DNA of 64,000 bases. Source: Phycisphaeraceae bacterium (GTDB lineage Bacteria; Planctomycetota; Phycisphaerae; Phycisphaerales; UBA1924). The notes beneath the pieces were generated by a model that ran no database searches, was not told the origin of the DNA, and saw only the letters and a list, made by a program, of their open reading frames with translations. A program made the position numbers and the translations under genes. Positions 9,895-56,852 of the stretch are shown piece by piece (within the stretch, counting starts at the first letter, position 1; the number at the start of each line of letters is the position of its first letter). The stretch covers positions 7,896 to 71,895 of the forward strand of contig JACKHA010000012.1 in assembly GCA_020639215.1 (NCBI GenBank). Reading direction: 5' to 3'.

Positions 9895-9990
9895 GTGCCC
9901 TGTCTCGCTGTCTCGCTGTCTCTTCCTCTCTCCGTCTCTGTATCTCTTCTCTTCGTCGCTCCGTCGCTTCGTCCCTTCGTCGCTTCCGGC
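9895..9990 (-). repeat. purine-rich post-stop spacer with shared 18-mer and 12-mer
   Basis: + strand gtgccctgtctcgctgtctcgctgtctcttcctctctccgtctctgtatctcttctcttcgtcgctccgtcgcttcgtcccttcgtcgcttcc. The 12-mer is at 9928-9939. The 18-mer at 9951-9968 lies 22 nt 3' of the pilB-like TAG (9991-9993). Confidence 0.85.
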
Positions 9991-11697
9991 CTAGTCCTGC
10001 GCCTCCACCTGGGCGACGCGGGCGATCTCGTCCGGCGTGGTCACGCCGGCGAGCACCTTCAGCTTGCCGTCCTCGACGAGCGACCGCATGCCGTTGGCGA
10101 CCGCGGCCTTGCGCACCTCCGGCAGCGGCGCCAGGTTGAACGCCAGGTCGCGGATCTGCGAGTTCATCAGCATCATCTCGAAGATCGCCTTCCGCCCGCG
10201 ATAGCCCGTCCGGTTGCAGTTCTCGCACCCGACGGCCTTATGGACCTTGCCAGCCCCGTCGCTGGCGCTCAGCCCGATGAGGCTCATGAACTTGGGGTCC
10301 GGGTTCGGATCGACCTGCTTGCACTTGGGGCACAGGATGCGGATGAGGCGCTGGGCCATGATCGCCTGGATCGACGAGGCGACCAGGAAGGGCTTGATGC
10401 CCATGTCCACCAGACGCGTGATGGCCGAGGGTGCGTCGTTGGTGTGCAGCGTCGAGAACACCAGGTGGCCCGTCAGCGCGGCCTGGATGGCGATCTCGCC
10501 GACCTCGCGGTCGCGGATCTCGCCGACCAGGATGATGTTGGGCGCCTGGCGGAGCATCGACCGCAGGATCTCGTGGAACCCCAGGCCGATGCCCTCCTTC
10601 ACCTGGCACTGGTTGATGCCGTCGAAGTTGTACTCGACCGGGTCCTCGGCGGTGATGATCTTCTTGTCGGGCTTGTTCAGGACGTCCAGGGCCGAGTAGA
10701 GCGTGGTGGTCTTGCCCGAGCCGGTGGGCCCGGTGACCAGGAAGATGCCGTTGGGGCGCCGGATGATCCGGTTGAAGATGGCCAGGTTGTCCTCCTCGAA
10801 GCCGAGGTTGACCAGGCCGATGCGGACCGAATCGGGGCGGAGGATACGGGCCACGACCGACTCGCCGTGGTAGGCCGGGCAGGCCGAGACGCGGAAGTCG
10901 ATGTCGGTGCCGTCAACGCCGAGCTTGATGCGTCCGTCCTGCGGGACGCGCTTCTCGGCGATGTTCATCGAGGCCATGAGCTTGAAGCGGCTGAGCACCG
11001 CGTTCTGCATGCGCTTGGGCAGGTTGTCGCGCTCGATGCACACGCCGTCGATGCGGTAGCGCAGGCGGACACGGTCGGCCATCGGCTCGATGTGCACGTC
11101 CGAGGCCCGCATCTTGACCGCCTCAGTGAGGATGCGGTTGCACAGGCGGACGATCGGGGCGTCCTCGCCCGCGATGTCGATCGACTTGTCCACCGAGCGG
11201 TCGACCGACCTGTCGATCGACTCCGAAACCAGCGACTCCTTCGCCGAGACCTCGCGCTCCTTGCTCTTGAGCGTGCCCTCGATGTAGGAGCGGATCTGGC
11301 CACGAGACGCGAGCTTGGGCTCCAGCTCCACGTTGAGGCGGAAGCGGAGCTTGTCCATCAGCTCGATGTCCATCGGGTCATGGACGAGCAGCTTGAGCTT
11401 GCCGTTGGCCTTGCCCAGCGGCAGGACGAGGTTCTTCTTGATCAGGTCGTCGGGCACGAGCGAGGTGTCGATCTGGTTGGCCGCGCCGTGGGCCGACAGA
11501 TCGACGTACTCCATGCCGAACTGGTTGGCCAGGGCCTTGGCGACGGCCTCTTCGCTGGCGAAGCCGAGCTCGGTCAGCACCTCGCCGAGGCGCTTGCCCG
11601 AGCCCTTGGCGACGGCGGCGGCCTTCTCGGCCTGCTCCTTCGAGATCGTCCGCCAGGACACCAGGATGTCGCCGAGTTTCGTGCGGGATCGTGCCAT
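9991..11697 (-). CDS. second GspE/PilB-family assembly ATPase with N-terminal MshEN-like domain (568 aa)
   Basis: Walker A VTGPTGSGKTT, APNIILVGEIRD, GHLVFSTLHTND, tetracysteine CPKCK...CENCNRTGYRGR. The N-terminus reads KLGDILVSWRTISKEQAEKAAAVA and RLGEVLTELGFASEEAVAKALANQ. Confidence 0.92.
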   Translation of the reverse strand: MARSRTKLGDILVSWRTISKEQAEKAAAVAKGSGKRLGEVLTELGFASEEAVAKALANQFGMEYVDLSAHGAANQIDTSLVPDDLIKKNLVLPLGKANGKLKLLVHDPMDIELMDKLRFRLNVELEPKLASRGQIRSYIEGTLKSKEREVSAKESLVSESIDRSVDRSVDKSIDIAGEDAPIVRLCNRILTEAVKMRASDVHIEPMADRVRLRYRIDGVCIERDNLPKRMQNAVLSRFKLMASMNIAEKRVPQDGRIKLGVDGTDIDFRVSACPAYHGESVVARILRPDSVRIGLVNLGFEEDNLAIFNRIIRRPNGIFLVTGPTGSGKTTTLYSALDVLNKPDKKIITAEDPVEYNFDGINQCQVKEGIGLGFHEILRSMLRQAPNIILVGEIRDREVGEIAIQAALTGHLVFSTLHTNDAPSAITRLVDMGIKPFLVASSIQAIMAQRLIRILCPKCKQVDPNPDPKFMSLIGLSASDGAGKVHKAVGCENCNRTGYRGRKAIFEMMLMNSQIRDLAFNLAPLPEVRKAAVANGMRSLVEDGKLKVLAGVTTPDEIARVAQVEAQD

Positions 11698-11943
11698 GAA
11701 CCGGTGTCACTCTCGCTCGGGTGCTGATCGGGACCGACACCCCGCCCCGGCCTGGGGGCCCGGACGACGATGCCTGGATAGGGAGAGGATGGTATCGCGC
11801 CGCACGCCCCGCCGGGAGCCCGCGTCGGTGGGATTCACGCCCGGAGCCGCCAACAATACCGGTTCACCCCGATCGACGGGCGAAGCGACGGGCCGATCGA
11901 CAGCCGTCGCGATGGGCGGATCGGCGGACGGAGACAGGACCGG

Positions 11944-12741
11944 ATGGCGGGTTCGAACGGACATGTCGAGATGAAGCCTTCCAAGAGCCACCCAGCCGGC
12001 GCCGAACGCGGCGGGCCGCCGCGTTTGCTGATCACCGCCGGCCCGACCCAGGAGCCGATCGACGCCGTCCGGTACATCGGGAACCGCTCGTCCGGGCGGC
12101 TTGGCGTGTCGCTGGCAGAAGAGGCCGCCCGTGAGGGGTGGCGCGTGACGCTCCTGCTGGGCCCGACGCCGCGGCAGCCTGCCGATTCGCGGATCGACCT
12201 CCACCGGTTCCGAACGACGGCGGACCTGCAGGCCCTGCTGGGCCAGCACCTGCCCCACTGCGACGTGCTGGTCATGGCGGCGGCCGTAGCCGACTATCGC
12301 CCGAAGATCGACGCCGCGACCCTGGGCGGAAAGCGTCGGCGGGTGGCCGAGGGTCTGACGATCGAACTCGAGGCCACGCCGGACCTTCTGGCCGGGTGCG
12401 CGGCCAGCCGGCGGGCGGACCAGACCCTGGTCGGCTTCGCTTTGGAGCCCCGCCAGGAGATGGTCGCCTCGGCCCGACGGAAACTGACGCGGAAGAAAGT
12501 GGATCTGATCGTCGCCAATCCTCTCGAAACGATGGACGCCGAGACGATCGAGGCCACCGTTTTCGGGGATGAGCCGACCGGCCTTGCCGGCGGGCGATCC
12601 ACCCCCGGCCCGATCGCCAAGACGGCGTTCGCCGGGTGGCTGCTTGGGGTGATCGGTGAGGTTCGGGAGCGGATGGCTCCCACAACAGGGGATGGCGCTG
12701 GCGAGGCGACTTCCGCTCGGAGCGACCATGCCAGACGGTGA
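11944..12741 (+). CDS. coaB: phosphopantothenate-cysteine ligase domain protein (stand-alone CoaB-like, 265 aa)
   Basis: LLITAGPTQEPIDAVRYIGNRSSGRLG and VLVMAAAVADYRP match the CoaB half of CoaBC. No flavoprotein (CoaC) half is present in this ORF. Confidence 0.7.
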   Translation: MAGSNGHVEMKPSKSHPAGAERGGPPRLLITAGPTQEPIDAVRYIGNRSSGRLGVSLAEEAAREGWRVTLLLGPTPRQPADSRIDLHRFRTTADLQALLGQHLPHCDVLVMAAAVADYRPKIDAATLGGKRRRVAEGLTIELEATPDLLAGCAASRRADQTLVGFALEPRQEMVASARRKLTRKKVDLIVANPLETMDAETIEATVFGDEPTGLAGGRSTPGPIAKTAFAGWLLGVIGEVRERMAPTTGDGAGEATSARSDHARR

Positions 12742-14986
12742 CCAGCACGGCGGACCAGGGAATCAGGGTGGCGATTGGCAACCCCCGACTCGGCGCGGGC
12801 CGAGGCCGGTGCGGGTCAGCCCGCCGGGTAGTGGCGGGCCGGGCGGTGGGCCGGGGGGCGGCGCGCCGCGCGGGCCGCGGCAAGGGGGATCGCGATCCGG
12901 GTTCGGCGGCGGCTACGGCGCCGGGTTCGGGTCCGGGGGTCCGGGGCGTGGGCCGCGATCGGGATTTGGGCCGGGCGGGGGGCGCGGGCCCCGGATGGGT
13001 GGCGGCTTTGGCGGTGGGCCTCGGCCGGGGCCGGGGCCGCGGCGTGAGGCTGGTCCGGGCCAGGGGTTCGATGGGCCGCGCGGGCCGCGCCAGGAGCGGA
13101 CGCCGCCGCTGCGGGTGCTGTACCAGGACGAGGCGATCCTCGCGGTTGAGAAGCCGGCGGGGATGGCGTTGTCGGTGCCGCCCGGCAAGCCGCGGCGACC
13201 CGGGACGCTGACCCTGCAGGATCAGGTGCTCGAGTACGTGCGGAGCGAGGGCGGTCGCAAGGCCGGGGCGTGGGGCGTTCACGACCTGGACCGCGAGGCG
13301 TCGGGGATCGTGGTGTTCGCGCGGAGCCCGGCGGCGGCGGAGTCGGTGCGCTCGGCGTTCGGATCGAAGAAGGGCGATGCGATCTACCTGGCGGTGGTGG
13401 ATGGCGTGGTCGGTGCGGGGCCGCGAGTTGTGATGGAGAGCGGCGGCGTGCCGCACGATTCGTCGGGCGACGCCGATGGCGAGTCCGCGAAGGGCGACGA
13501 CACGCGCGACGACGCGGGTGATGGCGAGTCGAGCGGCGATGACAGTGGTCGTGGCGGACCGGCGACGCAGGATCGCCCGTTCACCGGCACAGTTCGTTCG
13601 TTCGTGCGGCGCGTGGGGCCGCGGGTCGAGAGCATCCCGCCGGACGAGTTCACCGGGGATCGTTCGGGCGGGAAGCGTGTCGAGACGCCGCGATTGGCGA
13701 TCACGCACTACCGGGTGGTGGCGTCGGGGCACGGTCGGACGCTGATGCGGCTTCGGCTCAAGAGCCCGCGGATGCACCAGGCGCGGGTGCACATGCGCGA
13801 CCTGCGCCATCCGGTGACGGGCGATTCGTTCTACGGCGCGGGCGAGCGGGTCGGTCGCACGATGCTGCACCTGGCGGAGATCACGTTCCCGCACCCGACG
13901 ACGCACAAGGCGGTGCGTCTGTCCAGCCCGGCACCGGCGTCGTTCTGGCAGGCGGTTGGGGCCGAGGCGCCGGCGGAGGCGGGGTCGATTCGGGCGAAGG
14001 TGCGGGAGGCGGGAGCGCCGGGTCGTGGCGCTGATGCGGCGGGCGAGTCGCACGCGGCGTCGGCCACGGCGGGCGCTTCATCGGAAGCCGCGGGCATTGT
14101 TGGGGCGGGCGAAGCCGGCGACGCCGATCGCGGCTGGGAGCACGTGGCCGAGTGGTACGACGCGCTCGTGGCGGGAAAGAACAACGACCTGCAGGACGAG
14201 GTGGTCACGCCCGGCGTGCTGCGCCTGCTGGAACCGCGGCGTGGTCAGCGGGTGCTGGACGTGGCGTGCGGGCCGGGCGAACTGGTGCTGCGCCTGGCGG
14301 GCATGGGGGTTGAGGCGGTGGGTGTGGATGCGGCACCGCGGATGATCGAGATCGCGCGCCATCGCGCCGAGCAGGCGAGGCCGCGGGTTGCTCAAGCGCC
14401 CGGGCACGAAGGCGCCGGTGGCAGCGCGAACGCCGATGCGATCGCGCGTTTCGAGGTCGCCGATGCCCGATCGCTTCGCGACGGGCTGCGCGACGATGCG
14501 CCGTTCGACGCGGTCACCTGCGTCATGGCGCTGATGAACATCGACGACCTGGGCGCGACGCTCGAGGGCGTCGCGTCGCTGCTGAAGCCCGGCGGGCGCT
14601 TCGTCGCGGTCGTGCTGCACCCGGCGTTCCGGTCGCCCGGCGTCACGACCTGGGGCTGGGCGTCGCAGGCGGTGTCCGCCGGCGGTCGGGGCGGCATGGC
14701 CCACCGCCAGTACCGGCGCGTCGATGCCTACCTCTCGCACGCCACCAGCGACGTGACCATGAACCCCGGCTCGGTGGCGCGCGGCGAGGCGCCGGTCGTG
14801 ACGCACACGCACCACCGCCCGATCGGGGCGTACGTCTCGATGCTGGGCCGGGCCGGGATGCTGGTGGACTGCCTGGAGGAGTGGGCCAGCCCGCGCCGCA
14901 GCCAGGCGGGGCCAAGGGCCGCGGAGGAGGATCGGGCCCGCCGGGAGATCCCGATCTTCATGGCGGTGCGGGCGGTCAGGCGATAG
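12728..14986 (+). CDS. fusion protein: Gly/Arg-rich N-terminal region, RluA-family pseudouridine synthase and class I SAM methyltransferase (752 aa)
   Basis: ORF 12656..14986 trimmed to ATG 12728 (MPDGDQ). Residues 1-125 are RGG/GFG-rich. RluA motifs: VLYQDEAILAVEKPAGM, HDLDREASGIVVFARS, PRMHQARVHMRDLRHPVTGDSFYG. The C-terminal methyltransferase has VLDVACGPGELVLRLA, FDAVTCVMALMNIDD and LLKPGGRFVAV. There is no stop between the domains. Confidence 0.8.
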   Translation: MPDGDQHGGPGNQGGDWQPPTRRGPRPVRVSPPGSGGPGGGPGGGAPRGPRQGGSRSGFGGGYGAGFGSGGPGRGPRSGFGPGGGRGPRMGGGFGGGPRPGPGPRREAGPGQGFDGPRGPRQERTPPLRVLYQDEAILAVEKPAGMALSVPPGKPRRPGTLTLQDQVLEYVRSEGGRKAGAWGVHDLDREASGIVVFARSPAAAESVRSAFGSKKGDAIYLAVVDGVVGAGPRVVMESGGVPHDSSGDADGESAKGDDTRDDAGDGESSGDDSGRGGPATQDRPFTGTVRSFVRRVGPRVESIPPDEFTGDRSGGKRVETPRLAITHYRVVASGHGRTLMRLRLKSPRMHQARVHMRDLRHPVTGDSFYGAGERVGRTMLHLAEITFPHPTTHKAVRLSSPAPASFWQAVGAEAPAEAGSIRAKVREAGAPGRGADAAGESHAASATAGASSEAAGIVGAGEAGDADRGWEHVAEWYDALVAGKNNDLQDEVVTPGVLRLLEPRRGQRVLDVACGPGELVLRLAGMGVEAVGVDAAPRMIEIARHRAEQARPRVAQAPGHEGAGGSANADAIARFEVADARSLRDGLRDDAPFDAVTCVMALMNIDDLGATLEGVASLLKPGGRFVAVVLHPAFRSPGVTTWGWASQAVSAGGRGGMAHRQYRRVDAYLSHATSDVTMNPGSVARGEAPVVTHTHHRPIGAYVSMLGRAGMLVDCLEEWASPRRSQAGPRAAEEDRARREIPIFMAVRAVRR

Positions 14987-20883: not shown

Positions 20884-21453
20884 CTATTGCGACGGGCTTG
20901 CGGCGAGGATGCGGTCGGCGGCGGCGGCGAGATCGAAGGCGGCGGAAACGAGCAGCAGGTTCGAGTCGGGGACGCCGGCGCGGCGGCCTGATTCCAGGTC
21001 GCGGGGTTTGTCGCCGATGGCCCACGAGCGGGGAAGGTCGATGTCGAAGGCGGCGGCGGCGGCCAGGAGCATGCCGGGGGCGGGCTTGCGCCAAGTGTGC
21101 TCGCGGGTGAACGCGGGGACGCGGCCGATGGGGTGGAAGGGGCAGTAGTAGATGGCGGCGAGGAGGCCGCGGCGCTGGTCGTCGACGAAGAGGCGGCGCA
21201 TGGCGTCGTTGGTGGCCTCGACCTGGTCGATGGTTCCGTGGCCACGGGCGACGAGGCCCTGGTTGCTCACGACGATGAGTGCGAAGCCGGCGCGGGCGAG
21301 GCGTCGGCAGGCCTCGATGGCGCCGGGGAGGGGGCGGACCCAGGCGGGGTCGCAGAGGTCGCCGTGGTGGCGTGCGGCGAAGGCCTCGGGGGGGAGGGAA
21401 CCGTTCTCGATGAGGGTGTCGTCGCGGTCCAGGAAGATCGCGGGGCGGGGCAT
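20884..21453 (-). CDS. gmhB: D-glycero-D-manno-heptose 1,7-bisphosphate phosphatase-like HAD-IIIA hydrolase (189 aa)
   Basis: ORF 20884..21633 trimmed to ATG 21453: MPRPAIFLDRDDTLIEN (DxDxT), VVSNQGLVARG, YYCPFHP, RKPAPGML and AIGDKPRDLESG motifs. Confidence 0.8.
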   Translation of the reverse strand: MPRPAIFLDRDDTLIENGSLPPEAFAARHHGDLCDPAWVRPLPGAIEACRRLARAGFALIVVSNQGLVARGHGTIDQVEATNDAMRRLFVDDQRRGLLAAIYYCPFHPIGRVPAFTREHTWRKPAPGMLLAAAAAFDIDLPRSWAIGDKPRDLESGRRAGVPDSNLLLVSAAFDLAAAADRILAASPSQ

Positions 21454-28086: not shown

Positions 28087-30630
28087 TCAGGGCGAGGGCT
28101 GGTCGCCCGCACGATCGGCCGCCGCGTCACGGATCGCGACGAGCAGGCGTCTGGCCAGGGCGGTGTGCGTGAGGCGCTCTCGGACACGGGCCGCGATGGC
28201 GTCGGAGACGGCGCGGCGCCAGTCCGGGCGCTCGATGGCCCGTTCGATCAGGGCTTCGAGCGTCGCCTCGTCGTGGAACGAGACCTCGGCCAGGTCGCCG
28301 AAGAGCCAGGTGGGGTCCATCTCGACGCGTTCGAGCGCGGCCCGGCGGCGCAGCGCCTCGACGCGTGCCGTGTTGAGCAGGATGCCGGGGCGGAGCAGGG
28401 GGAAGCCGAGGCGTTGGGTCTGGGCGGCGAACGCCATGGCCTCGGGCGCGTCGGCGAAGGAGTAGAGCGGACCGGCGTCGGCGTCCCCGGGTTCGGCGTC
28501 CATCGGCGTTGCGCCGCGTTCGAGCAGGCTCCGCTGGGCCCGCCCGTGGAGCGTGGAGAGCGACTCGCGTGTCGGGCGGACGATGGGCAGCCCGCCGGAC
28601 AGGGCGCACTCCATCGGGCGCTGGTGCATGAGGGCGGTCAGGCACAGGTGCAGGTGGACGCGGGCGCACTGGTAGCAGGCTCGGAGTTCTTCGCCGTGCT
28701 CGGTGAGGCCGGCGGCGTGTCGGGCCAGCGTGGGGTGCGACTCCCAGCCCTTGCCGTGGAGGCGGAGGCGCCAGCCGCGGCGGTCGGCGATGGAGGCGGC
28801 CCAGGCCAGGGCCTCGTGGCGGAAGGCCCGGTCGGCGATGGGCAGGGCGTAGTTGCGGAAGAAGAGGCCCTCGATGCGGTCGTCGGGGCCGAGCGGGTGG
28901 TGGCGGGCCAGTTCCTCTCGCACCGCGTCGCGGAGCGGTTTCCACGGGCTTCGGTCCGTCGCGCGGGCGATCTCCAGGCAGCGCGGCAGCAACGCGTCGA
29001 GCACGCGGGCGGCGGCGGGGTCCTCGAACGCCTCGCCCTTGAGGCGCGCGTGCATGGCCTCCACGGTCTCGCTGTGGTGCGTCACGCAAGCGATTTCGCA
29101 GGCGAATCGCTCGCGCAACGCCGGGGCGACGGGCGCAGGGTGGAACTTGGTGTCGCTGGCGACGACCGGGGACACCACGGCCCGATCGCGGGGGTACCCG
29201 TGCTTCTCGAAGAGGTCCTCGGCGCAGTGCCCGGCCACGAAGTCCAGCGGGCCCATCGCCCGGCCCACGTCGCGGCTGAACAGGTGGGGCATCATGTCCT
29301 GCACCCAGCACACCACCGGCACGTTGGGCGGTGTGACGCCCGGGAACTGGGCCCGGGCGTAGTTGATGAACACGATCAGGTCCGGGTCGAGGCGGTCGAT
29401 CGCGTCCAGGTACGCGACTGTTGAGAACTGCGTGTGGTCGTCGGGTTCGAGCAGGATCTCGGCGGTGTGCCCCATCCTGCGGAGCGTGTCGGCCAGGTCG
29501 CTGGCGGCGTGCCGGAGGAACGTGGTGTAGCGGCTGGTGGGGATGAGCACGCGCAGCGGGCCGACGGGGGCGTCGGGCGAGGCGGTGCCGGCCCACCCCG
29601 AGCGGGCCGTGGCGTCGCCGCCGATCGCCGTTGCGAGGCGGGATGCGATCGCGTCGGGCGTGCGTTGTTCGTCCCGGCTCATGACCCGCGAGCGCAACTC
29701 GTCGGCCAGACGGCTCTGGGCGGCGATCGCCGCCTGCATCGCCGACTCCGGCGCGACGCCCAGCAGCGTTCTGGTTCCGGCCAGGCGAACGAACCGCCCG
29801 GTCAGGCTTCGGGTCTGGTCGCTGCGGGCCCATCGGGCGAGGCGCTCGCTGGCGTCGCGCCCGGCGAGCAGCATCGTGCGGGGCGATGCGAGCAGGCCTT
29901 CCAGCGGCGCGAGCGAGAGGCCGTGCAGGGCGTCGACGGGATCGGCCTGGAGCAGGATCAAGCGCGGCTGGTAGCCGTTGGCCTCGGCGCCCAAGGCCCG
30001 GGCGATGGCGTCGGCGAGCCAGGGCGGGTCGATGCCCTCGAGCACGATCGCGGGGCGGGGCTTGGGGAGCGGAGCGATGTTGCGGGCGACGAACTCGCGG
30101 GCCGCACGCTGGTGGTCGATCAGGCCGAGCCAGTTTGAAGGGTTGGCGTCACCCCGCTCGCGCCTGACGGCGTTTCTATCGAGCGTGCGGTAGACCTGGG
30201 TATGATCGGCTTGCTCCACCCAGCGCTCGGCAATGGGCAGCAGGTCGGTGCCACGGGAGCCGAGGTGCTGGAGGTTGGCCGCGAGCGTGGCCCGGCGGGT
30301 GTTGGCGGGCATCTCGTCGTCGGGCAGGGCTCGCAGCGCGTCGCGGAGGCCCGACACCGCGGGATCGGCGGCCGCCTCGCCCGAGAGCAGGGCGAGCTGC
30401 TCGATCGCCAGCGTCCGCAGGCCGAGGCGTCCGAGGGCCGAGGCGAAGAGGAACCGGACGCCGGCGTCGCCCGGGGCGGCCCGGAGCGCGGCCACGCCGA
30501 CGGGCAGGAAGGCCCACGGCTCGCTGGAGCGCCCCAGGCGGATGATGTCGCCGCGCGTGTAGCGGACGCTCGCCCCGGAAAGGCTGGGCGTCGGGGCGAC
30601 CGGTTGGGACTGCGCGGGGGCTCCGGGCAT
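28087..30630 (-). CDS. large (847 aa) multidomain protein with CgeB-like / group-1-type glycosyltransferase C-terminal region
   Basis: ORF 28087..31152 trimmed to ATG 30630 (MPGAPAQS), because the upstream part is antisense to the + strand hldE-like gene. The C-terminal part (PDLIVFINY...VVCWVQD...RLHGKGWE...MHQRPMECALSGGLPIV) resembles DUF3880/Glyco_trans_1_2 (CgeB family). The N-terminal 450 aa is unassigned. Confidence 0.5.
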   Translation of the reverse strand: MPGAPAQSQPVAPTPSLSGASVRYTRGDIIRLGRSSEPWAFLPVGVAALRAAPGDAGVRFLFASALGRLGLRTLAIEQLALLSGEAAADPAVSGLRDALRALPDDEMPANTRRATLAANLQHLGSRGTDLLPIAERWVEQADHTQVYRTLDRNAVRRERGDANPSNWLGLIDHQRAAREFVARNIAPLPKPRPAIVLEGIDPPWLADAIARALGAEANGYQPRLILLQADPVDALHGLSLAPLEGLLASPRTMLLAGRDASERLARWARSDQTRSLTGRFVRLAGTRTLLGVAPESAMQAAIAAQSRLADELRSRVMSRDEQRTPDAIASRLATAIGGDATARSGWAGTASPDAPVGPLRVLIPTSRYTTFLRHAASDLADTLRRMGHTAEILLEPDDHTQFSTVAYLDAIDRLDPDLIVFINYARAQFPGVTPPNVPVVCWVQDMMPHLFSRDVGRAMGPLDFVAGHCAEDLFEKHGYPRDRAVVSPVVASDTKFHPAPVAPALRERFACEIACVTHHSETVEAMHARLKGEAFEDPAAARVLDALLPRCLEIARATDRSPWKPLRDAVREELARHHPLGPDDRIEGLFFRNYALPIADRAFRHEALAWAASIADRRGWRLRLHGKGWESHPTLARHAAGLTEHGEELRACYQCARVHLHLCLTALMHQRPMECALSGGLPIVRPTRESLSTLHGRAQRSLLERGATPMDAEPGDADAGPLYSFADAPEAMAFAAQTQRLGFPLLRPGILLNTARVEALRRRAALERVEMDPTWLFGDLAEVSFHDEATLEALIERAIERPDWRRAVSDAIAARVRERLTHTALARRLLVAIRDAAADRAGDQPSP

Positions 30631-30735: not shown

Positions 30736-32445
30736 ATGCGGGACATGGAATCCGCCGCCAAGATCCTGAGCCGAGAGCAACTCCTGCGCGTCCGCGAGCA
30801 GGCCCGGCGCGACGGGCGGCGCGTGGTGCAGTGCCACGGCTGCTTCGACATCGTGCACCCCGGGCACATCCGCCACCTGCGATTCGCCAGGCAGCTGGGC
30901 GACATCCTGCTCGTGACGCTCACGGGCGACTCGTCGATCGCCAAGGGCACGGGTCGCCCGTTGATCCCCGAGGAACTGCGGGCCGACAACCTCGCGGCCT
31001 TGGACTTCGTGGACTGGGTGCATGTCGAGTCGCGCCCCACCGCGGGCGAGCTGCTGGGCGAGGTTCGCCCCGATGTGTATGTGAAGGGGCGCGAGTACGA
31101 GTTCAACAGCGACCCGCGGTTCAAGGCCGAGCGCCGGGCCGTTGAGGACCACGGCGGGCGGGTTGTGTTCTCATCGGGCGACGTGGTCTTCTCCAGCACG
31201 GCTCTGATCGCGGCTCTGGAGCAGAGCGTTGACCCGTTCCATGCCCGCCTGCGCGACCTGCTCGCGCGCGACGAGGCCCAGGGGGCGACGCTCGGCGGGA
31301 TCGTGTCGGCGATGCGCGGCGTGCCGGTGGTGGTCGTCGGCGAGACGATCCTCGACACATACGTTCTGTGCGACAGGCCGGACGTGGCGGGCGAGAGCCC
31401 GATCATGACGCTCCGCCCCGCGGAGTACCGCCATTACGACGGTGGGGCGGCGATCATCGCACGCCACGCCGCGGCTCTTGGGGCACGCCCGGTGCTGATC
31501 ACGCCGATGCCCACCGGTGGCCCGGGGCTAGAGGCGGCGCGGGCCGTGCGGCAGCGACTGATCGCCGAGGGAGTGGACGTGCGCCCGATTCCGGTGGAGA
31601 CGCCGCTGCCCGAGAAGCAGCGGTTCCTGGTCGGTGCGCAGAAGGTGATGAAGGTCGATCTGGTGGACCGCCTGGTCGTGGACACGACCACGGGCGAGCG
31701 GCTCGTGCAGATGGCCACCGCGGCGGCGCGGGAGGTCCACGCGGGCGTGGGGATCGTCGCGGACTTCGGGCTCGGGTTGTTTTCGAGCGCGCTGCTGCGC
31801 CGCTTGTGCCTGGCCCTGCGTGAGCACGCCGCGATCATGGCGGGCGACGTCAGCGGGCGACGCTCGAACCTGACGGCGATGAGCGGGATGGACCTGTTGT
31901 GCCCGAGCGAAGGCGAGGTCCGCGACGCGATGGGGCTGCACGACCAAGGCCTGCCGGCGGTGACGTGGCGGCTGCTCGAGCGCACGAACGCGAAGCGCGC
32001 GATCATCTCGATGGGTGGCGACGGGTTGATCGCGTTCGATCGCATCCAAGGCGGGGCGGAATCCGAGCCGGCGTCACTCGCCGAGGCGACGACGAGTGCC
32101 AGGTCGGATGCCAAGGGCGGCGACGGCTGGGCCCGGCGCCTGGCTGCGGAGCACATCCCCGCGTTGTGCCCGTTCGCGGTCGACCCACTGGGGTGCGGCG
32201 ACTCGCTGCTCACGACCGCGGCTCTGGCGCTGGGGGCCGGCGGCTCCTTGCTGAGCGCGGCGATCCTGGGGGCCGCCGCCGCGGGCGTGCAGGCCCAGCG
32301 CCTCGGCAACCTGCCCGTTTCCGCCACGGACGTGCGACATGCCGTTGCCCGCCTGCACGCTTCGCACCTGGCGTATGCCCCGGCCGAGGTGCTCGACGCG
32401 CACCTGACGCCGCGCCGCGAACTGGCGACTGGCGCCGCGTCGTGA
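30736..32445 (+). CDS. domain-permuted HldE-like bifunctional enzyme: N-terminal cytidylyltransferase-fold adenylyltransferase and C-terminal PfkB sugar kinase (569 aa)
   Basis: ORF 30202..32445 trimmed to ATG 30736. The N-terminal part has VVQCHGCFDIVHPGHIRHLRFARQLGD, RPLIPEELRADNLAALDFVDWV and PDVYVKGREY. The C-terminal part has VVVVGETILDTYV...GESPIMTL...YDGGAAIIA and DPLGCGDSLLTTAALALGAG. The order is the reverse of the HldE at 55353..56852. Confidence 0.8.
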   Translation: MRDMESAAKILSREQLLRVREQARRDGRRVVQCHGCFDIVHPGHIRHLRFARQLGDILLVTLTGDSSIAKGTGRPLIPEELRADNLAALDFVDWVHVESRPTAGELLGEVRPDVYVKGREYEFNSDPRFKAERRAVEDHGGRVVFSSGDVVFSSTALIAALEQSVDPFHARLRDLLARDEAQGATLGGIVSAMRGVPVVVVGETILDTYVLCDRPDVAGESPIMTLRPAEYRHYDGGAAIIARHAAALGARPVLITPMPTGGPGLEAARAVRQRLIAEGVDVRPIPVETPLPEKQRFLVGAQKVMKVDLVDRLVVDTTTGERLVQMATAAAREVHAGVGIVADFGLGLFSSALLRRLCLALREHAAIMAGDVSGRRSNLTAMSGMDLLCPSEGEVRDAMGLHDQGLPAVTWRLLERTNAKRAIISMGGDGLIAFDRIQGGAESEPASLAEATTSARSDAKGGDGWARRLAAEHIPALCPFAVDPLGCGDSLLTTAALALGAGGSLLSAAILGAAAAGVQAQRLGNLPVSATDVRHAVARLHASHLAYAPAEVLDAHLTPRRELATGAAS

Positions 32446-32455: not shown

Positions 32456-33598
32456 ATGACCCCATCGATCTCCTACATCATCCCGACCCGCAACCGCTTG
32501 GGCGAGCTTCGGCGCACGCTGGACGCGATCGGCGACATGGGACGCCACGATGCCGAGGTCATCGTGGTCGACAACGCCTCCGCGACGCGCCCGCACGTGC
32601 CGGCACACCTGGCCAGCGGCGTACCGACCACGCTCTTGCAGCGCACCCGCAACGAGGGGGCGGCGGCTCGCAACATCGCCGCCCGGGCGGCTTCGGGACG
32701 CTGGCTCGTCATGCTCGACGACGACTCGCACCCGACCTGCACGGGCGACGAGATCGACGGCGCGCTCGGCTCGCAACCGAGCAACGTCGGCGCGGTCATG
32801 GGCGACATCAGGTTGCCCGGCCCGGGGCGCCGCGAAGCGGGTGGGTTGCCCGAAGTCTTCGTAGGCTGCGGCGTGGCCATCCGGCGCGATGTGTTCCTGG
32901 ATCTGGGAGGCTATGACCGCTCGTTCGGGTACTACGCCGAGGAGTACGACCTGGCGGCCCGGATGCTGCTCGACGGTCTGCGGGTCGGTTTCGACCCCGT
33001 GTTCAGCGTGGACCATCGCAAGGTGGTCGCCGGGCGGAACATGGACCTGATCCTCGAGCGCCTCGTGCGGAACAACGCGTGGGTGATGCAGCGGTACGCG
33101 CCGGAGGCGGTCCGGCGAAAGGAGATCAGGCACATCCGCGCGCGGTACCGCTCGATAGCGATCAAGGAGCACGCCCTGGGCGGGTTCGGACGCGGGCTGG
33201 TGGAACTGCGCGACACCATCGCCGCCCAGCCGCGCCGCGAGATGCCCCAGCACGCCTTCGACCGTTTCACCGGCCTGGCCGCCGCCCGCCAGGCAATCGC
33301 CCTCGCGCTCGCCCAGCGCCCGGGCGCCATCCGCAGCGCGACGATCGTGGCCCACGGCAAGAACGAGTCGGTTGTCCGGCACGCGATCGCCGAAGCCGGG
33401 ATCGCCCTCCTCGACTCGCCCGACGCCGAGGCCGCGGCGGACATGCTCGTCATCGGCACGCTCTCGCCCGGCCCGATGATCGACGCGGCGCTGGCCCGCC
33501 CGGTCGACTGGGCGTCGGGTCGGCTCGTGCTCCCGTGGACCCGGGCCGCGCTCGCGATCGATCGGCCCAAGGCGCCCGCTCCGGCCCGGGCCGCATAA
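32456..33598 (+). CDS. family 2 glycosyltransferase (380 aa)
   Basis: ISYIIPTRNRLGELRRTLDAI...VIVVDNAS...NEGAAARN...VMLDDDS are GT2 motifs. It starts 10 nt after the hldE-like stop. Confidence 0.85.
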   Translation: MTPSISYIIPTRNRLGELRRTLDAIGDMGRHDAEVIVVDNASATRPHVPAHLASGVPTTLLQRTRNEGAAARNIAARAASGRWLVMLDDDSHPTCTGDEIDGALGSQPSNVGAVMGDIRLPGPGRREAGGLPEVFVGCGVAIRRDVFLDLGGYDRSFGYYAEEYDLAARMLLDGLRVGFDPVFSVDHRKVVAGRNMDLILERLVRNNAWVMQRYAPEAVRRKEIRHIRARYRSIAIKEHALGGFGRGLVELRDTIAAQPRREMPQHAFDRFTGLAAARQAIALALAQRPGAIRSATIVAHGKNESVVRHAIAEAGIALLDSPDAEAAADMLVIGTLSPGPMIDAALARPVDWASGRLVLPWTRAALAIDRPKAPAPARAA

Positions 33599-33635: not shown

Positions 33636-35909
33636 TCATTGGCCAGCGCGCGTCGCTGCGGCGTCCTGCGCAGGCGGTGGCTCCGGCATCCACGCCTCCA
33701 ACCCCGCCAGACGCTCGCGGCTCTCGTTGGTCACCGCGAAGCCCCACGCGTCGAAGTACCCGCTCAGATCTCGCCCAACCGCCTCGCTCAGCGCGACGAG
33801 GAACGCGTTGCGTTCCTCGTCCTGGCTCTGTGGGCGATGCTCCGGCGGCAAGGCCCGCATCGCGTCGAACGCGGCGTGGAACGCGTCGAAACCGAACGCG
33901 TGCCACAGCAGCGCGTAGAACTGCAGACGCGGGAACGGCCCGCCCACATCCTCGAATCGCCCCCCCGCCGCCCGATGCCGATCGAACGTCTCCCACGCGG
34001 TCTGCGGCGTCGACCGCATCACGTCCGAGTCCAGCGGGTAGCCGTTGACCGTGTGCAGCGCGTACACCGTGAAGATGTTGACGGTGACCTCGCCGGTGGC
34101 CCCGTCGGTCCACAGGGGGTTCTGGTGGGCGTGCCCCATCTCGTGGTAGTGCCCCCACAGGTTGTTGGGCCCTTCGGCGTCGAAGTTCTCGGTCTGGAAC
34201 ATGGCCCCGGCGGCGCTCGCGGGGATCACGATCGGGCCGTCCGCGGGGCAGTACATGTAGCCCCACGACACGCTCACGTCCGCGACGTACCGGTACGGGC
34301 GATCGGCCCAGTGGTTCGCGGTTCGCGGCTCGAGCGACTGCATGGCCTCGTGCACGCGATCCCAGTGCGCCATGACCACGTCCGGGTGCTCGACCTCGCG
34401 CACCGCAGACGACGGGACCGTCAGCACCAGTTCGCCCGACTCGAACTCCGCCCACGGCGCGTCCAGGTGGCGGATGCGTGAGCGCCACTGCCCGATGTCG
34501 GTCACGCCGGCGACGTATCGCGGCATCTCGGCGGCGTTGTCGATCTGGACGCGCCACACCGAGCCGCGGCTGGCCCGGGCCAGCTCCACCGGCACGTCGA
34601 TATAGATCGGCCCGCCGATCGCGCTGGCGACCTCGACCTCCGGCGTGTCGACCGGGAAGCGCCGCATCGCGTCGCGCAGGCGGACACGGTACGGGTGGTC
34701 GTGCGGATCGCGCCACGCGCCGATCTGGACGTGGACCCCGGCGCCGACGAGTGCCTCGGGCACGCGGATCGTCACGACCTCGCCCGGCGGCGCGTACAGC
34801 CCCGTCGACCGCCAGCCGGGCACGCCCGCGTCGAGTTCGATCACGGCCCGGGGCACGCGATCGGGCCCCAGCGGCCCGGGGAACGCTGCACTCGACGCAT
34901 GCGCCCGCAGCTCGCGAGCCGGCAGCTCCATCGCCAGGCGCGAATCGAGGTCCATCAGAGCCCGCGCCAGCGGGTCCCGCTGCGGCGTGAGGCGGGCCCC
35001 GCTCAATCCGGCGTACACCTCGTCGAGGCGAACGCGCTCGGCCATCGCGATGGCCCGGGCCTCGAGGATCAGCGTGCTGGTCAGCGGCACGCACGCGAAC
35101 GCGTCGCCCGCCACACGGGCCGCCAGCACCGTGTCGCCCGCCTCCTGCCCCGCGAGGACCCGCAGCGCGTGCGTGGCGTTCCCGCCAGCGAGCAGCGATC
35201 GGTCGAGCGGGTAATCGCCGTCGGGCCCGTAGGGGCGCTGCGACAGGTGTGTGAAGCGGATGCCCGCGGGCTCGAGCAGGCGGTTGGCCGCCAGCGTGTC
35301 GACGGTCAGGCCCGGGTTGAGTTGGAGCTGGCCCCAGGCGGTCTCGGTGAGCAGCATGCCGCCGCCGCGCTCGATCCAGTCGCGCAGGTCGTCGAATCGC
35401 CCGGCCCGCTCGAAGGCCTGCGCGGAGGCAACGACGACATCGACGGCGTCGAAGGCAAGGTCTCGCGGCTCGGCGCGAACGCGCTCGAACGCCGTGCCGC
35501 GCCGGGCGAGCTCGCCCGCGATCGCGTCTGAAAGCCCGAAGACGCGGATGGGCTGGGCATCGGCGGGCCCGTCGCCACCGTGCACCTCGCGCCCCGCCAG
35601 CCACTCGACCGCGCTGGCGGCGAACACCTCGGAGTCGCCCTCGGTCGTGGACACGAACCCGCCGTGCCCGATCGCGACGACCCGCCCGCGTCCGAGCGTG
35701 GAAGCGGCCGCGAAGACGCGTCCGTCCGGCGCGACGAGCAGGGCCTCGGCGTCGCCCCAGGCCACGAGCGAGGCGGGGTTGCCGCCCGAGCGGAGCGAGG
35801 TGACATCATGGAGGAGGGCGTCGACGGGCGTCGGGGCGGGCGAAGCCCCGGCGGCGGCGATGCCAGCAACAAGAAGTGGGGAGACAACCGAAGCGATGGT
35901 GGTCAGCAT
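33636..35909 (-). CDS. secreted peptidase M60-like (enhancin/TCAF-like) metalloprotease (757 aa)
   Basis: ORF 33636..36905 trimmed to ATG 35909 (MLTTIASVVSPLLVAGIAAAGASPAP, signal-like). Zinc motif is NLWGHYHEMGHAHQNPLW...GEVTVNIFT (HExxH plus downstream Glu), with a long N-terminal accessory region. Confidence 0.75.
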   Translation of the reverse strand: MLTTIASVVSPLLVAGIAAAGASPAPTPVDALLHDVTSLRSGGNPASLVAWGDAEALLVAPDGRVFAAASTLGRGRVVAIGHGGFVSTTEGDSEVFAASAVEWLAGREVHGGDGPADAQPIRVFGLSDAIAGELARRGTAFERVRAEPRDLAFDAVDVVVASAQAFERAGRFDDLRDWIERGGGMLLTETAWGQLQLNPGLTVDTLAANRLLEPAGIRFTHLSQRPYGPDGDYPLDRSLLAGGNATHALRVLAGQEAGDTVLAARVAGDAFACVPLTSTLILEARAIAMAERVRLDEVYAGLSGARLTPQRDPLARALMDLDSRLAMELPARELRAHASSAAFPGPLGPDRVPRAVIELDAGVPGWRSTGLYAPPGEVVTIRVPEALVGAGVHVQIGAWRDPHDHPYRVRLRDAMRRFPVDTPEVEVASAIGGPIYIDVPVELARASRGSVWRVQIDNAAEMPRYVAGVTDIGQWRSRIRHLDAPWAEFESGELVLTVPSSAVREVEHPDVVMAHWDRVHEAMQSLEPRTANHWADRPYRYVADVSVSWGYMYCPADGPIVIPASAAGAMFQTENFDAEGPNNLWGHYHEMGHAHQNPLWTDGATGEVTVNIFTVYALHTVNGYPLDSDVMRSTPQTAWETFDRHRAAGGRFEDVGGPFPRLQFYALLWHAFGFDAFHAAFDAMRALPPEHRPQSQDEERNAFLVALSEAVGRDLSGYFDAWGFAVTNESRERLAGLEAWMPEPPPAQDAAATRAGQ

Positions 35910-53710: not shown

Positions 53711-54805
53711 ATGGACCGCTGGACACGCCCGCTGGCCCCTCTCGCGACCGCGCTCGCGCTGGCCCTCGCCGCACCGGCGTCGGCCCAGAGCGCCGTCGAC
53801 CAACCGGTCGACCAACCCGTGTACGAGCTTGACGACTCGGGCGCCTGGGTGCAGACGGCGGCCCCCGAGCCCGGGTCCGACGCGGCGGTGATGGCCGAGG
53901 CCCGGCGCCTGATCGTCGAGGACCGCACGGGCGAAGCCATCAAGGTGCTCGACCAGTGGCTGGCGCACAACCAGCGTTCGGCCAACCCGTATGTGCCCGA
54001 GGCGTTGCTGCTCCGGGGCGACGCCAAGGTGGCCGCGGACAACGAGTACAGCGCGCTGATCGAGTACGAGGCGGTCACGATGTTCCCGGAGTCGCCGCAC
54101 TTCGTGACGGCGCTCGAGCGCGAGTACGAGATCGCGCTGCGGTACCTGAACGGCCTGCGCCGCAAGTTCCTGGGCTTCCGCATCGAGGACGCCCGCCCGA
54201 CGGGTGAGGAGCTGATGGTTCGGATCCAGGAGCGACTGCCGGGCAGCCGCCTGGCCGAGCAGGCCGCGATCGAGCTGGCCGACTACTACTACCGTCGTCG
54301 GGACATGCCGATGGCCTCGGACATGTACGAGATCTTCACGCGGAACTTTCCGGACAGCCCGTACCGGCGCTGGGCGATGCAGCGGTGGATCTACTCGAGC
54401 CTGGCCCGGTACAAGGGCCCGCGCCACGACACAACCGGCCTGGTCGACGCCCGGAACCTGATCGAGGACTTCCGCGATCAATACCCGCAGGACGCCGAGA
54501 GCGCGGGCATCAACGAGGCATTGCTGACGCGCGTCGACGAGTCGCTGGGCGACAAGCAGCTCGAAACCGCCATGTGGTATTTGCGCACGGGCGACGAGCC
54601 TTCGGCCCGGTACACGCTGCGCCGGCTCGTGCGCGACCACCCGCAGACAGTGGCCGCGGTCGAAGCGTTGCGGCTGCTGCGCGAGCGCGGCTGGGACGCG
54701 GGGATCGTGGCGCCGATCGGGCCGATCGGGCCAGTCGGTGTGCCGGGCGACGAGCCGGCGACCGGTGCGGGCGAGCCGGCCTCCTCGGGTGGAGCAACAC
54801 CGTGA
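53711..54805 (+). CDS. BamD (YfiO)-like TPR outer-membrane assembly protein, no lipobox (364 aa)
   Basis: In-frame ATG 53711 within track ORF 52502..54805. Signal peptide MDRWTRPLAPLATALALALAAPASAQS. TPR-like repeats carry BamD-style segments (EALLLRGDAKVAADNEYSALIEYEAV..FPESPH, YEIFTRNFPDSPYRRWA). Confidence 0.5.
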   Translation: MDRWTRPLAPLATALALALAAPASAQSAVDQPVDQPVYELDDSGAWVQTAAPEPGSDAAVMAEARRLIVEDRTGEAIKVLDQWLAHNQRSANPYVPEALLLRGDAKVAADNEYSALIEYEAVTMFPESPHFVTALEREYEIALRYLNGLRRKFLGFRIEDARPTGEELMVRIQERLPGSRLAEQAAIELADYYYRRRDMPMASDMYEIFTRNFPDSPYRRWAMQRWIYSSLARYKGPRHDTTGLVDARNLIEDFRDQYPQDAESAGINEALLTRVDESLGDKQLETAMWYLRTGDEPSARYTLRRLVRDHPQTVAAVEALRLLRERGWDAGIVAPIGPIGPVGVPGDEPATGAGEPASSGGATP

Positions 54806-55347
54806 AGCGGGCCGCACGCGCCATTGCCCTGCGTGGATGCCTGCTGGTGCTGGGCGTCGCGGGCCTCTCGGCCTGCGCTTCCGATCCGACGGAGGGCTAC
54901 TCGTTCGAGACGACCTACGACCACAGCGTCCGCACCATCTCCGTGCCGATCTTCCAGAACTCTACGTTCTGGACCGGCGTCGAGACCGAGCTGACCGAGG
55001 CGATCATCGCCGAGATCCAGCGGGCCACGCCCTGGCGCGTCACCCCGGAACGCCCCGGCGGGGGGGGCGACACCACGCTCTCGGGCGTCGTGCAGGAGGT
55101 CGAGATCACGCGACTCTCCACCTCACGCGCGAGCGGCCTGGTCGAGGAAGAGACCGTGACCGTCGAGGTTGACTTCGACTGGCGCGACAACCGGACAGGC
55201 CGGGTGCTGCTGGCGCGTCGGCGCTTCGCGGCGGCGGGATCGTTCGTCCCGCACCGCCCGACGGGCGACCGGATCGACGTGGGGCGGCGTGAGGCGATCC
55301 AGCAGCTGGCCCGCGACATCGTCTCGGAGCTGCGCAGCGACTGGTAG
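54802..55347 (+). CDS. LptE-like LPS-assembly lipoprotein (181 aa)
   Basis: GTG 54802 overlaps the upstream TGA (GTGA). VKRAARAIALRGCLLVLGVAGLSAC (lipobox LSAC), then TISVPIFQNSTFWTGVETELTEAIIAEIQR, typical of LptE family proteins. Confidence 0.55.
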   Translation: MKRAARAIALRGCLLVLGVAGLSACASDPTEGYSFETTYDHSVRTISVPIFQNSTFWTGVETELTEAIIAEIQRATPWRVTPERPGGGGDTTLSGVVQEVEITRLSTSRASGLVEEETVTVEVDFDWRDNRTGRVLLARRRFAAAGSFVPHRPTGDRIDVGRREAIQQLARDIVSELRSDW

Positions 55348-55352: not shown

Positions 55353-56852
55353 TCACGCATTCGACGCCGACTCCGCGCCCCGGATTCGCTCGAGCGTCCG
55401 CGTCGTGGACAGGCCCTCGACCAGTTCGACAAGCACGACCTTGCCGCCGCGCTGCTCGACGAATTCCTGTCCCACGACGCCCTTGCCGGCCCAGTCGGCG
55501 CCCTTGACCAGCACGTCTGGCTTGATCGCCTCGATCAGGCTCAGCGGGGTGTCCTGGTCGAACAGCACCACCGCGCCAACACACGCCATCGCGCCGAGCA
55601 GGCGGGCCCGGTCCTCCTGCGTGTTCACCGGGCGGTCCGGGCCCTTGAGGCGCCGGATCGACGCGTCGGCGTTGAGGCCGACGATCAGGAAGTCGCCCTG
55701 GGCCCGCGCGGCTTCCAGGAGCGTCGCGTGCCCGGCATGCAGCACGTCGAAGCACCCGTTGGTGAACACGATCCGCTCGCCCGAGCGCCGCCGGGCGCGG
55801 ATCTCGACGAGCAGGCGGTCGAGCGTGCGCAGGCCGCGGTCGTCTCCCGCATGCTCGAGGATCAGCTGGTGGTGGATCTTCTCGAGCGGGATCGGCACGA
55901 CGCCGAAGACCTCCACTTCTAGCCCGGCCGCGGCGTTAGCCAGGCGGACCGCGTTCGGCCAGGAAAGCGCGTTGGCGCGACCCGCGGCCAGCGCGGCGAG
56001 GAAAATATCGCCCGCGCCGGTCACGTCGTACACCTCGCGCGCGACCGTGGGCACCGCTACGGCGTCTCGCCCCCGCTCGAGCAGCAGGGCGCCGTGCCGA
56101 TCGAGCGTCAGCACCGCGGCCTCGCACTCGAGGCGGTCGGCAAGGCGGGTCGCCAGCGCGCCGTTGTGGGCCAGGTCCGCCGACTCGTGCGTGGGCAGGC
56201 CCGTGGCCCGCTCGGCCTCGACGCGGTTCGGCGTGATCGCGGTGCAACCCCGGTACTTGGCGTAGTCACCGATGGCCGCGGGATCGACGAACACCGGCAC
56301 GCCCGCGTCGCGGGCCATCGCGATAGCCCGCTGGCACACGCCCGGCGTGCACACGCCCTTGTTGTAGTCCTCGATACAAAGGACGTCGATCTGCCCGAGC
56401 ACGCGCTCGAGCCCGCCGAGAAGGGCCGCGGCGGTCTCGGCGCTGAGCGGGTCGCGGGTCTCGTAGTCGACGCGGAACATCTTCTGCGGGTGTCGCGTCT
56501 GGGCCAGGCCGATGAGGTTCCGCTTGACGGTCGTGGGGCGTGAAGCGTCCTCGACCAGGCCGGAGGCGTCGACGCGCTCGCGCTCGAGCGCGCCCTTGAG
56601 CAGCCGCCCCTCCGCATCCTGCCCGGTCACGCCGATCGCGACAACCGATGCGCCCAGCGCGACCAGGTCCATCGCGACGTTCGCGGCCCCGCCGGGGCGA
56701 TCCTCCGTCCGGCGCACATGCAGCACCGGCACCGGGGCGTCGGCCGACAGGCGCTCGGCGTCGCCGTAGACCAGTTGGTCCAGCATGAAGTCCCCGAGGA
56801 CTGCCGCTCGGAAGGGCTTCCAGGCCGCCAGTGTGTTCAGGAGGTCGTCCAT
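55353..56852 (-). CDS. hldE: bifunctional D-beta-D-heptose 7-phosphate kinase / D-beta-D-heptose 1-phosphate adenylyltransferase, canonical domain order (499 aa)
   Basis: ORF 55353..57299 trimmed to ATG 56852 (MDDLLNTL). The kinase part has VLGDFMLDQLVYG...ADAPVPVL...RPGGAANVA and YDVTGAGDIFLAALAAG. The transferase part has RIVFTNGCFDVLHAGHATLLEAARAQGD and RPVNTQEDRARLLGAMACVGAVV. Confidence 0.9.
   Translation of the reverse strand: MDDLLNTLAAWKPFRAAVLGDFMLDQLVYGDAERLSADAPVPVLHVRRTEDRPGGAANVAMDLVALGASVVAIGVTGQDAEGRLLKGALERERVDASGLVEDASRPTTVKRNLIGLAQTRHPQKMFRVDYETRDPLSAETAAALLGGLERVLGQIDVLCIEDYNKGVCTPGVCQRAIAMARDAGVPVFVDPAAIGDYAKYRGCTAITPNRVEAERATGLPTHESADLAHNGALATRLADRLECEAAVLTLDRHGALLLERGRDAVAVPTVAREVYDVTGAGDIFLAALAAGRANALSWPNAVRLANAAAGLEVEVFGVVPIPLEKIHHQLILEHAGDDRGLRTLDRLLVEIRARRRSGERIVFTNGCFDVLHAGHATLLEAARAQGDFLIVGLNADASIRRLKGPDRPVNTQEDRARLLGAMACVGAVVLFDQDTPLSLIEAIKPDVLVKGADWAGKGVVGQEFVEQRGGKVVLVELVEGLSTTRTLERIRGAESASNA

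Follow-up and report, generated by a model that had tools for sequence, protein, structure and literature searches.

A second, transferase-first HldE-type enzyme probably serving a glycosyltransferase-based glycan pathway in a Phycisphaerales bacterium

The 64,000-nucleotide (nt) stretch of contig JACKHA010000012.1 analysed here, which comes from a Phycisphaeraceae bacterium and is referred to throughout as the window, carries two genes related to the bifunctional heptose kinase/nucleotidyltransferase HldE: a canonical copy in which the PfkB kinase domain precedes the nucleotidyltransferase domain, and a second gene, at 30736-32445, in which this order is permuted. We propose that the permuted gene probably encodes a second HldE-type enzyme that feeds nucleoside diphosphate (NDP)-heptose to a dedicated glycan pathway built around a family 2 glycosyltransferase (GT2), a reading that draws on its sequence, its relatives and the genes that accompany them. 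The transferase-first layout is itself an old, widespread family trait and not a fusion peculiar to this genome.

The permuted gene occupies a forward-strand frame that is stop-free from 30202 up to the TGA at 32443-32445. The ATG at 30736, the start given in the original prediction, yields 569 aa, and an alternative ATG at 30745, 9 nt past a GAGGA, yields 566, three residues fewer, in agreement with a 566-aa database protein (P0001) that is 99% identical. Pfam places CTP_transf_like at residues 34-131 followed by PfkB at 198-441, NCBIfam places rfaE_dom_II at 20-161 (114.4 bits) and rfaE_dom_I at 192-436 (92.6 bits), and the signature peptides GCFDIVHPGH (residues 35-44, nt 30838-30867) and DPLGCGDS (residues 483-490, nt 32182-32205) stand in the same order; all of this agrees with the N-terminal transferase and C-terminal kinase originally predicted, and both peptide strings quoted in that prediction are found in the sequences. 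The 120 nearest database proteins each give one BLASTP alignment over 92-100% of the query at 59-99% identity; HPGH in the transferase and GxGD in the kinase are kept in all of them, while 119 have the kinase SxxE and 110 have SS(S/T) in the transferase. In an AlphaFold model built from an input alignment of 30 sequences (mean predicted local distance difference test, pLDDT, 86.2), a predicted helical linker at residues ~151-192 connects the two domains, and confidence is low for the first three residues, for linker residues 162-165 and for the C-terminal tail, as well as in a kinase insertion whose residues 441-460 reach a pLDDT of about 48-50. Two adjacent genes read as one are excluded by the stop-free frame, the full-length collinear homologues and the model joining both domains, and the overlooked stop that the original prediction had allowed for is absent from the frame. 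Its wording "circularly permuted" is loose, the difference being an order swap of two autonomous domains that are also known as separate hldA and hldC genes. A recent horizontal acquisition is unlikely as well, since the GC content of the gene (0.72) and its third-codon-position GC (GC3, 0.90) are at the level of the housekeeping genes of the window, which has a G+C of 71%; the nearest homologues of both heptose genes lie in Phycisphaerales metagenome-assembled genomes.

The spread of this architecture was followed in two ways. When 1.8 billion cluster representatives were searched exhaustively with phmmer, 661 proteins were returned at E <= 1e-30, and by the coordinates of hidden Markov model (HMM) matches the transferase comes first in 112 of 113 full-length representatives, as against 18 of 18 canonical HldE controls that are kinase-first; HxGH lies near residue 30 and GxGD near residue 450 in the full-length representatives of the top 150. 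Domain order was judged from alignment coverage, motif positions and HMM coordinates, the database's precomputed Pfam list being non-positional and therefore unused. A scan with the pattern GxF[DN][ILV][VLI]HPGH, in which each species was represented by a single genome (185,579 genomes), revealed at least 586 relatives, this being the number encoded by the 600 matching stretches listed. Among the matches listed, the best 80 relatives come from Phycisphaerae, other Planctomycetota, Alpha-, Beta- and Gammaproteobacteria, Bacteroidota, Chlamydiales, Elusimicrobia, Cyanobacteria, Leptospiraceae, Lachnospiraceae, Actinomycetota and Thermoplasmata, with Tardiphaga robiniae, Azospirillum sp. TSO22-1 and Bradyrhizobium sp. 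STM 3557 as cultured carriers; cluster look-ups extend the family to Nanoarchaeota and Patescibacteria. The database survey of domain order that had been proposed for this gene thus finds the transferase-first form to be common across many phyla and archaea. Against these numbers the suggestion of an independent fusion cannot stand as an event local to this genome. The concern that the layout might be common and already annotated as ordinary HldE was justified on the first count and only in part on the second, given that NCBI uses the names "adenylyltransferase/cytidyltransferase family protein" or "PfkB family carbohydrate kinase" and JGI "rfaE bifunctional protein" or "bifunctional ADP-heptose synthase".

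The family is marked by the transferase-to-PfkB order and by the motifs CHG..HPGH, KGxEY, GG...F..G....SS and, in the kinase, D..G(A/C)GD, all of which the window protein has. About 10% of the family representatives carry a degenerate kinase GxGD (GSED, GSRS, GTRE, GASE and GTKE are the forms seen in P0140, P0129, P0157, P0162, P0174 and P0238), the motif of the window protein being intact; judged by this motif, the members that lack it may form a pseudokinase branch in which the transferase alone would be active. Full-length transferase-first homologues with both domains (24-34% identity) also lie on IMG/VR contigs of 26-60 kb that are classed as viral (L096-L101 and L103), and many further phage contigs bear an HPGH-type transferase domain alone.

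Indications of what the family makes come from its gene neighbourhoods. Across 55 loci outside the Planctomycetota, a homologue of the isomerase GmhA lies no more than 8 kb away in 32, of the phosphatase GmhB in 21 and of at least one of the two in 37, for an estimated chance expectation of well under one locus of 55, and in Chlamydiales, Bdellovibrionota, Elusimicrobia and Cyanobacteria these genes often directly adjoin the transferase-first gene. A Daejeonella operon of about ten genes (L037:1681-11351) comprises a SIS isomerase, a HAD phosphatase, a transaldolase, two SDR/4,6-dehydratase-like genes and the transferase-PfkB gene, together with GFO/IDH/MocA, nucleotide-sugar dehydrogenase, SDR and E1 component genes; its order is repeated in a second locus (L045) and conserved in Hyphomicrobiales, so that it is common to Bacteroidota and Alphaproteobacteria. 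On a plasmid of a cultured Azospirillum oryzae (NZ_CP054615.1, L086:6890-16420) the family member WP_149200362.1 is followed by SIS, SDR, thiamine pyrophosphate-dependent E1 alpha and beta, and two DegT aminotransferase genes. From their gene content, both operons look as though they lead to an NDP-heptose with extensive modifications. Finally, the 699-aa Patescibacteria protein P0268 (TAL20625.1) fuses a GmhB-like HAD-IIIA phosphatase (E 5e-42) to the nucleotidyltransferase and PfkB domains; three of the four steps of the heptose pathway are joined in this one polypeptide, in an order outside the published classes.

The GmhA/GmhB linkage, the operons and the GmhB fusion argue that the family most likely makes NDP-heptose by a route of GmhA, kinase, GmhB and transferase. 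The kinase domain would phosphorylate O1 of the heptose 7-phosphate supplied by the GmhA isomerase, a GmhB-type phosphatase would take off the 7-phosphate, and the N-terminal domain would join the resulting heptose 1-phosphate to a nucleoside triphosphate, giving NDP-heptose. Since several carriers, including archaea, Patescibacteria, Lachnospiraceae and Actinomycetota, are without lipopolysaccharide (LPS), this product would often have to serve non-LPS glycans.

In the window itself, it is the company kept by the two heptose genes that points to separate roles. Of 26 Planctomycetota loci, 17 have a homologue of the GT2 that follows the permuted gene (hereafter the partner GT2), in most cases immediately 3' of the transferase-first gene, as against 0 of 55 loci of other phyla, and 8 of the 26 have, on the other side, the divergently transcribed gene for a protein of ~800-850 aa. 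With GT2 genes on either side and an 847-aa neighbour that weakly matches Glyco_trans_1_2, the permuted gene lies among glycosyltransferases, as originally predicted, and not among LPS genes as does the canonical copy. The latter encodes PfkB at residues 18-319 and CTP_transf_like at 363-455, is collinear with positions 6-473 of the HldE model PRK11316 (419.7 bits, also under that model's whole-protein cutoff of 521) and exceeds the rfaE_dom_II cutoff of 181.5 with 190.9 bits, and databases list its homologues as HldE or heptose 1-phosphate adenylyltransferase, which upholds the claim that 55353-56852 has the kinase-then-transferase order of E. coli HldE. Its placement beside LptE-like and BamD-like genes is likewise confirmed by PF04390 and PF13525 matches. 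In another Phycisphaeraceae genome (JAHBXH010000001.1, L176, 8927-11485) the canonical hldE begins 10 nt downstream of lpxK, the gene of the lipid A 4'-kinase, and in a further locus (L177) it shares a 20-kb neighbourhood with a lipid A acyltransferase; with lpxK directly 5' of it, the canonical hldE is linked to the synthesis of lipid A/LPS in this Phycisphaerae order.

The dedicated second pathway put forward in the original prediction sits well with this context, namely a GT2 gene that starts 10 nt 3' of the permuted gene and a canonical copy associated with LptE, BamD, LpxK and the acyltransferase. The permuted enzyme would rely on heptose 7-phosphate and a phosphatase available in the cell, and in this Phycisphaerae lineage its NDP-heptose would feed the soluble GT2, presumably transcribed together with it, and the glycosyltransferases nearby, forming a glycan branch apart from the LPS core, which would be served by the canonical HldE. 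As for a phosphatase, the gene at 20884-21453 that had been called GmhB-like does have GmhB as its best NCBIfam match; its 95 bits fall under the cutoff of 178, and with scores at about half of the GmhB cutoffs an assignment as heptose bisphosphate phosphatase is tentative. The DRDD motif is present in this protein and the CxC part of the E. coli GmhB-type zinc loop is apparently missing.

Both domains of the permuted protein point to heptose enzymes by sequence, and the kinase does so by fold as well. The models rfaE_dom_I and rfaE_dom_II are the best for 30 of 30 diverse family members (best E 6e-62 and 1.5e-34), and the HldA-type motifs VvGD..D.Y, GGAA.VA, PT..K.R and D..GaGD are kept family-wide. 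The top seven Foldseek matches of the kinase in the PDB are all Burkholderia cenocepacia HldA (E 3e-23 to 2e-21, template modelling score on the target 0.82-0.88), 5-6 orders of magnitude ahead of the ribokinases and PFK-2 that come next at ~1e-17. The protein itself retains the HxGH motif of rfaE_dom_II as HPGH and its STT as FSST with an altered upstream part, and in the kinase GG and GCGD are present and NxxE reads SxxE.

A number of observations nevertheless weigh against counting the permuted gene as an NDP-heptose synthase. The HldE equivalog model PRK11316/NF008454 matches the protein with 160.3 bits in three separate stretches, for a cutoff of 521; rfaE_dom_II, though by a wide margin the best transferase model (TagD reaches 28), gives 114.4 bits for a cutoff of 181.5 and rfaE_dom_I 92.6 for a cutoff of 345. 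The kinase has ESPI where HldA has EAPV, plus an insertion that is missing from most representatives of the family. No GmhA or GmhB homologue lies near the transferase-first gene in any of the 26 Planctomycetota loci, no GmhA was found within the 64-kb window, and no experimental work on transferase-first members was found in the literature. Several motifs of the transferase pocket, moreover, have changed throughout the family: the canonical TNG (N in 95%) becomes CHG (H in 81%), N(S/A)D (N in 100%) becomes T.D, DTP becomes.TA and (F/L)xxGxSTT becomes GDVVFSS(S/T). HAGH also becomes HPGH, and KG(G/A)DY becomes KGxEY. These motifs are assigned to heptose 1-phosphate binding and adenine stacking by a docking study of HldC (PMC7993394), and the family-wide change of residues predicted to line the pocket suggests that the substrate or the nucleotide may differ from the canonical ones. 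The different sugar or nucleotide specificity raised in the original prediction is therefore given room by these changes, and on the motifs alone we would call it possible. Taking both sides together, the protein departs from the formal definition of HldE in its domain order (transferase at residues 20-161 and kinase at 192-436, where HldE has the kinase N-terminal) and in all score cutoffs, yet it most likely works like HldE.

The two copies are highly diverged, as had been claimed: they share 39% identity in the transferase and 22% in the kinase, the permuted protein shares 37% and 24% with the respective domains of E. coli HldE, and the canonical copy of the window shares 48% and 38% with the latter. 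In a tree of 132 transferase domains, the transferase-first proteins, among which the permuted copy groups, are split from canonical HldE, HldC and tridomain proteins in 183 of 200 bootstraps; resolution is poor in the tree of kinase domains (97 of 200 for a canonical clade, 45 of 200 for the bipartition of the permuted proteins), with the ribokinase outgroup falling among long permuted branches. The trees were made by neighbour joining on an FFT-NS alignment, with few canonical sequences (from E. coli, Alphaproteobacteria, Actinobacteria, Planctomycetota and Neochlamydia) and no outgroup for the transferase. The domain-wise phylogenies that had been called for accordingly delivered a transferase clade, and the kinase tree allows no inference on origin. 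The low identity and the separate transferase clade imply that the permuted gene is no recent duplicate of the resident hldE. Identity to Phycisphaerales homologues decays in parallel for the two genes, through 99, 78 and 66% for the permuted and 97, 82 and 67% for the canonical copy (lower ranges 59-66% versus 61-68%), and this parallel decay together with the host-like GC3 makes both heptose genes look long resident in this lineage. The family may have arisen either through fusion of an hldC-like with an hldA-like gene or through an early permutation, two origins between which trees lacking a settled root do not discriminate.

The permuted gene might instead encode a redundant isozyme of the canonical HldE, and to this speaks the proximity of its two domains to HldC and HldA, as well as the lack in both window copies of the STTR5 arginine: Phe takes its place in the permuted protein (GDVVFSST) and Leu in the canonical one (LVEGLSTT). 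In published work this arginine, part of (F/L)xxGRSTT, is what marks enzymes that are promiscuous for CTP and UTP (PMC11573728). We regard such redundancy as unlikely, for two enzymes of the same product would not be expected to be kept at similar conservation across Phycisphaerales, and the pocket motifs are systematically unlike the canonical ones, down to the Phe for which adenine stacking has been proposed (PMC7993394).

A second alternative, which we rate as rather improbable, is that the enzymes of the Planctomycetota clade activate another sugar, be it a hexose, a pentose or a sugar alcohol, through kinase and nucleotidyltransferase steps without any phosphatase, and so supply the partner GT2. 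The missing GmhA/GmhB linkage in that clade would be accounted for, as would a conserved core consisting of the enzyme and the GT2 alone, the altered sugar-phosphate motifs, the scores under the cutoffs and the diverged kinase (22-24% identity to HldE kinases). Set against this, the clade is nested in a family whose other branches link to GmhA and GmhB and with which it has the family motifs in common, HldA is the best structural match, and heptose 7-phosphate and a phosphatase could be supplied in trans because the genome keeps a canonical HldE. That the gene is an artefact, either a misread pair or a decaying or non-catalytic paralogue, is highly improbable: non-catalytic kinase domains do exist in the family, as the degenerate GxGD motifs attest, but here the frame has no stop, homologues are collinear over their full length, a confident model joins both domains, HPGH and GxGD persist in 120 of 120 close homologues, and GC3 is that of housekeeping genes.

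The features of the window that bear on an NDP-heptose pathway are collected in Table 1. The start of the 847-aa neighbour was taken from an alignment with an 800-aa homologue (L001); a sequence search of solved structures was uninformative for the partner GT2 and gave no match for the 847-aa protein. Convergent to the partner GT2 lies a gene for a secreted M60/enhancin-like metallopeptidase (33636-35909, minus strand) with a signal-peptide-like N-terminus and an HEMGH motif, whose position is not conserved in three homologous loci (L001-L003). Farther away, the window holds a type II secretion/type IV pilus-like block (1269-11706, minus strand) with open reading frames (ORFs) bearing the prepilin N-methylation motif, a T2SSF platform and three successive T2SSE ATPases, and a single ORF (12653-14986, plus strand) that combines RluA-type pseudouridine synthase and class I S-adenosylmethionine methyltransferase domains.

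Table 1. Coordinates of the two heptose genes, their domains and motifs, and neighbouring genes in the window.
Feature	Position	Strand	Evidence and remarks
Permuted HldE-like gene, transferase-first	30736..32445	+	569 aa; one open frame, Pfam/NCBIfam order, collinear homologues, AlphaFold model
HldC-like nucleotidyltransferase domain	30736..31245	+	aa 1-170; rfaE_dom_II match; B. pseudomallei HldC 5x9q nearest solved structure by sequence
Transferase motifs	CHG/HPGH 30832-30867; KGxEY 31066-31095; GGRVVFSSGDVVFSST 31153-31200	+	
HldA-like PfkB kinase domain	31312..32370	+	aa ~193-545; rfaE_dom_I match; HldA fold matches
Kinase motifs	GG 31438-31461; SxxE 31900-31923; GCGD 32182-32205	+	
Kinase-domain insertion	32041..32139	+	aa 436-468; gapped in most family representatives; predicted disordered
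Soluble GT2 glycosyltransferase	32456..33598	+	Pfam Glycos_transf_2; starts 10 nt past the stop of the permuted gene
847-aa protein, weak Glyco_trans_1_2 match	28087..30630	-	Pfam E 6.5e-6; divergent; 105-nt gap to the permuted gene
Second GT2, 491 aa	26593..28068	-	Pfam Glycos_transf_2, 89 bits
HAD-IIIA phosphatase, GmhB-like	20884..21453	-	GmhB models best, 95 and 79.5 bits versus cutoffs 178 and 149.6
BamD/YfiO-like gene	53711..54805	+	PF13525, 52.3 bits; TIGR03302, 73 bits
LptE-like lipoprotein gene	54802..55347	+	PF04390, 52.9 bits; adjoins canonical HldE
Canonical kinase-first HldE	55353..56852	-	499 aa; PRK11316 419.7 bits

Among characterised systems, the HldE (RfaE) known from E. coli and further Gram-negatives is built from the same pair of domain families with HxGH and GxGD, and its gmhA/gmhB partners recur elsewhere in the transferase-first family; the order of the domains, the identity of 37-39% in the transferase and 22-24% in the kinase, and scores under every equivalog cutoff set the permuted protein apart from it. 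The nearest solved structures belong to the split enzymes of Burkholderia and Neisseria, HldC (5x9q) by sequence and HldA (4e84/4e8y) by fold. There the two activities reside in separate genes, which shows them to be autonomous modules that can be fused either way round; HldC has FEHDRSTT, that is, the STTR5 motif linked to ATP/CTP/UTP promiscuity, which the permuted protein is without. The tridomain NDP-heptose synthetases of Actinobacteria also fuse modules of the pathway, much as P0268 fuses GmhB, and the transferase domain of the one sampled falls on the canonical side of the transferase tree, unlike the transferase-first proteins. The published scheme of monodomain, kinase/transferase didomain and isomerase/kinase/transferase tridomain forms (PMC11573728) places the kinase ahead of the transferase, and our literature search, which reached the primary work by way of commentaries, found no description of the transferase-first order. 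Uncharacterised transferase-first proteins are numerous in the databases, where they go by generic names. A role analogous to the one proposed here is played by another second, non-LPS route of heptose activation, which pairs a GHMP kinase with a different class of sugar nucleotidyltransferase, both of unrelated families. Domains of either kind are absent from the permuted protein.

One could go further and take the transferase-first proteins as a fourth class of NDP-heptose synthase, with a product that differs from ADP-D,D-manno-heptose in nucleotide, anomer or configuration and that the GT2 of Phycisphaerae would build into a non-LPS heptose glycoconjugate; as a deduction from pocket motifs and gene context, this extended proposal is tentative, and we think it may well not hold in full. 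NDP-heptoses go into the making of LPS cores, capsules, S-layer glycans and antibiotics, and ALPK1 senses them as innate-immune agonists. A transferase-first form so widespread, with a systematically altered pocket, would extend the catalogue of NDP-heptose enzymes, and the family might lead to further NDP-heptose species, or to sugars derived from heptose, that are new. For the window analysed here the mechanism itself is no surprise, and the permuted gene probably marks a second glycan pathway in a Phycisphaerales bacterium.

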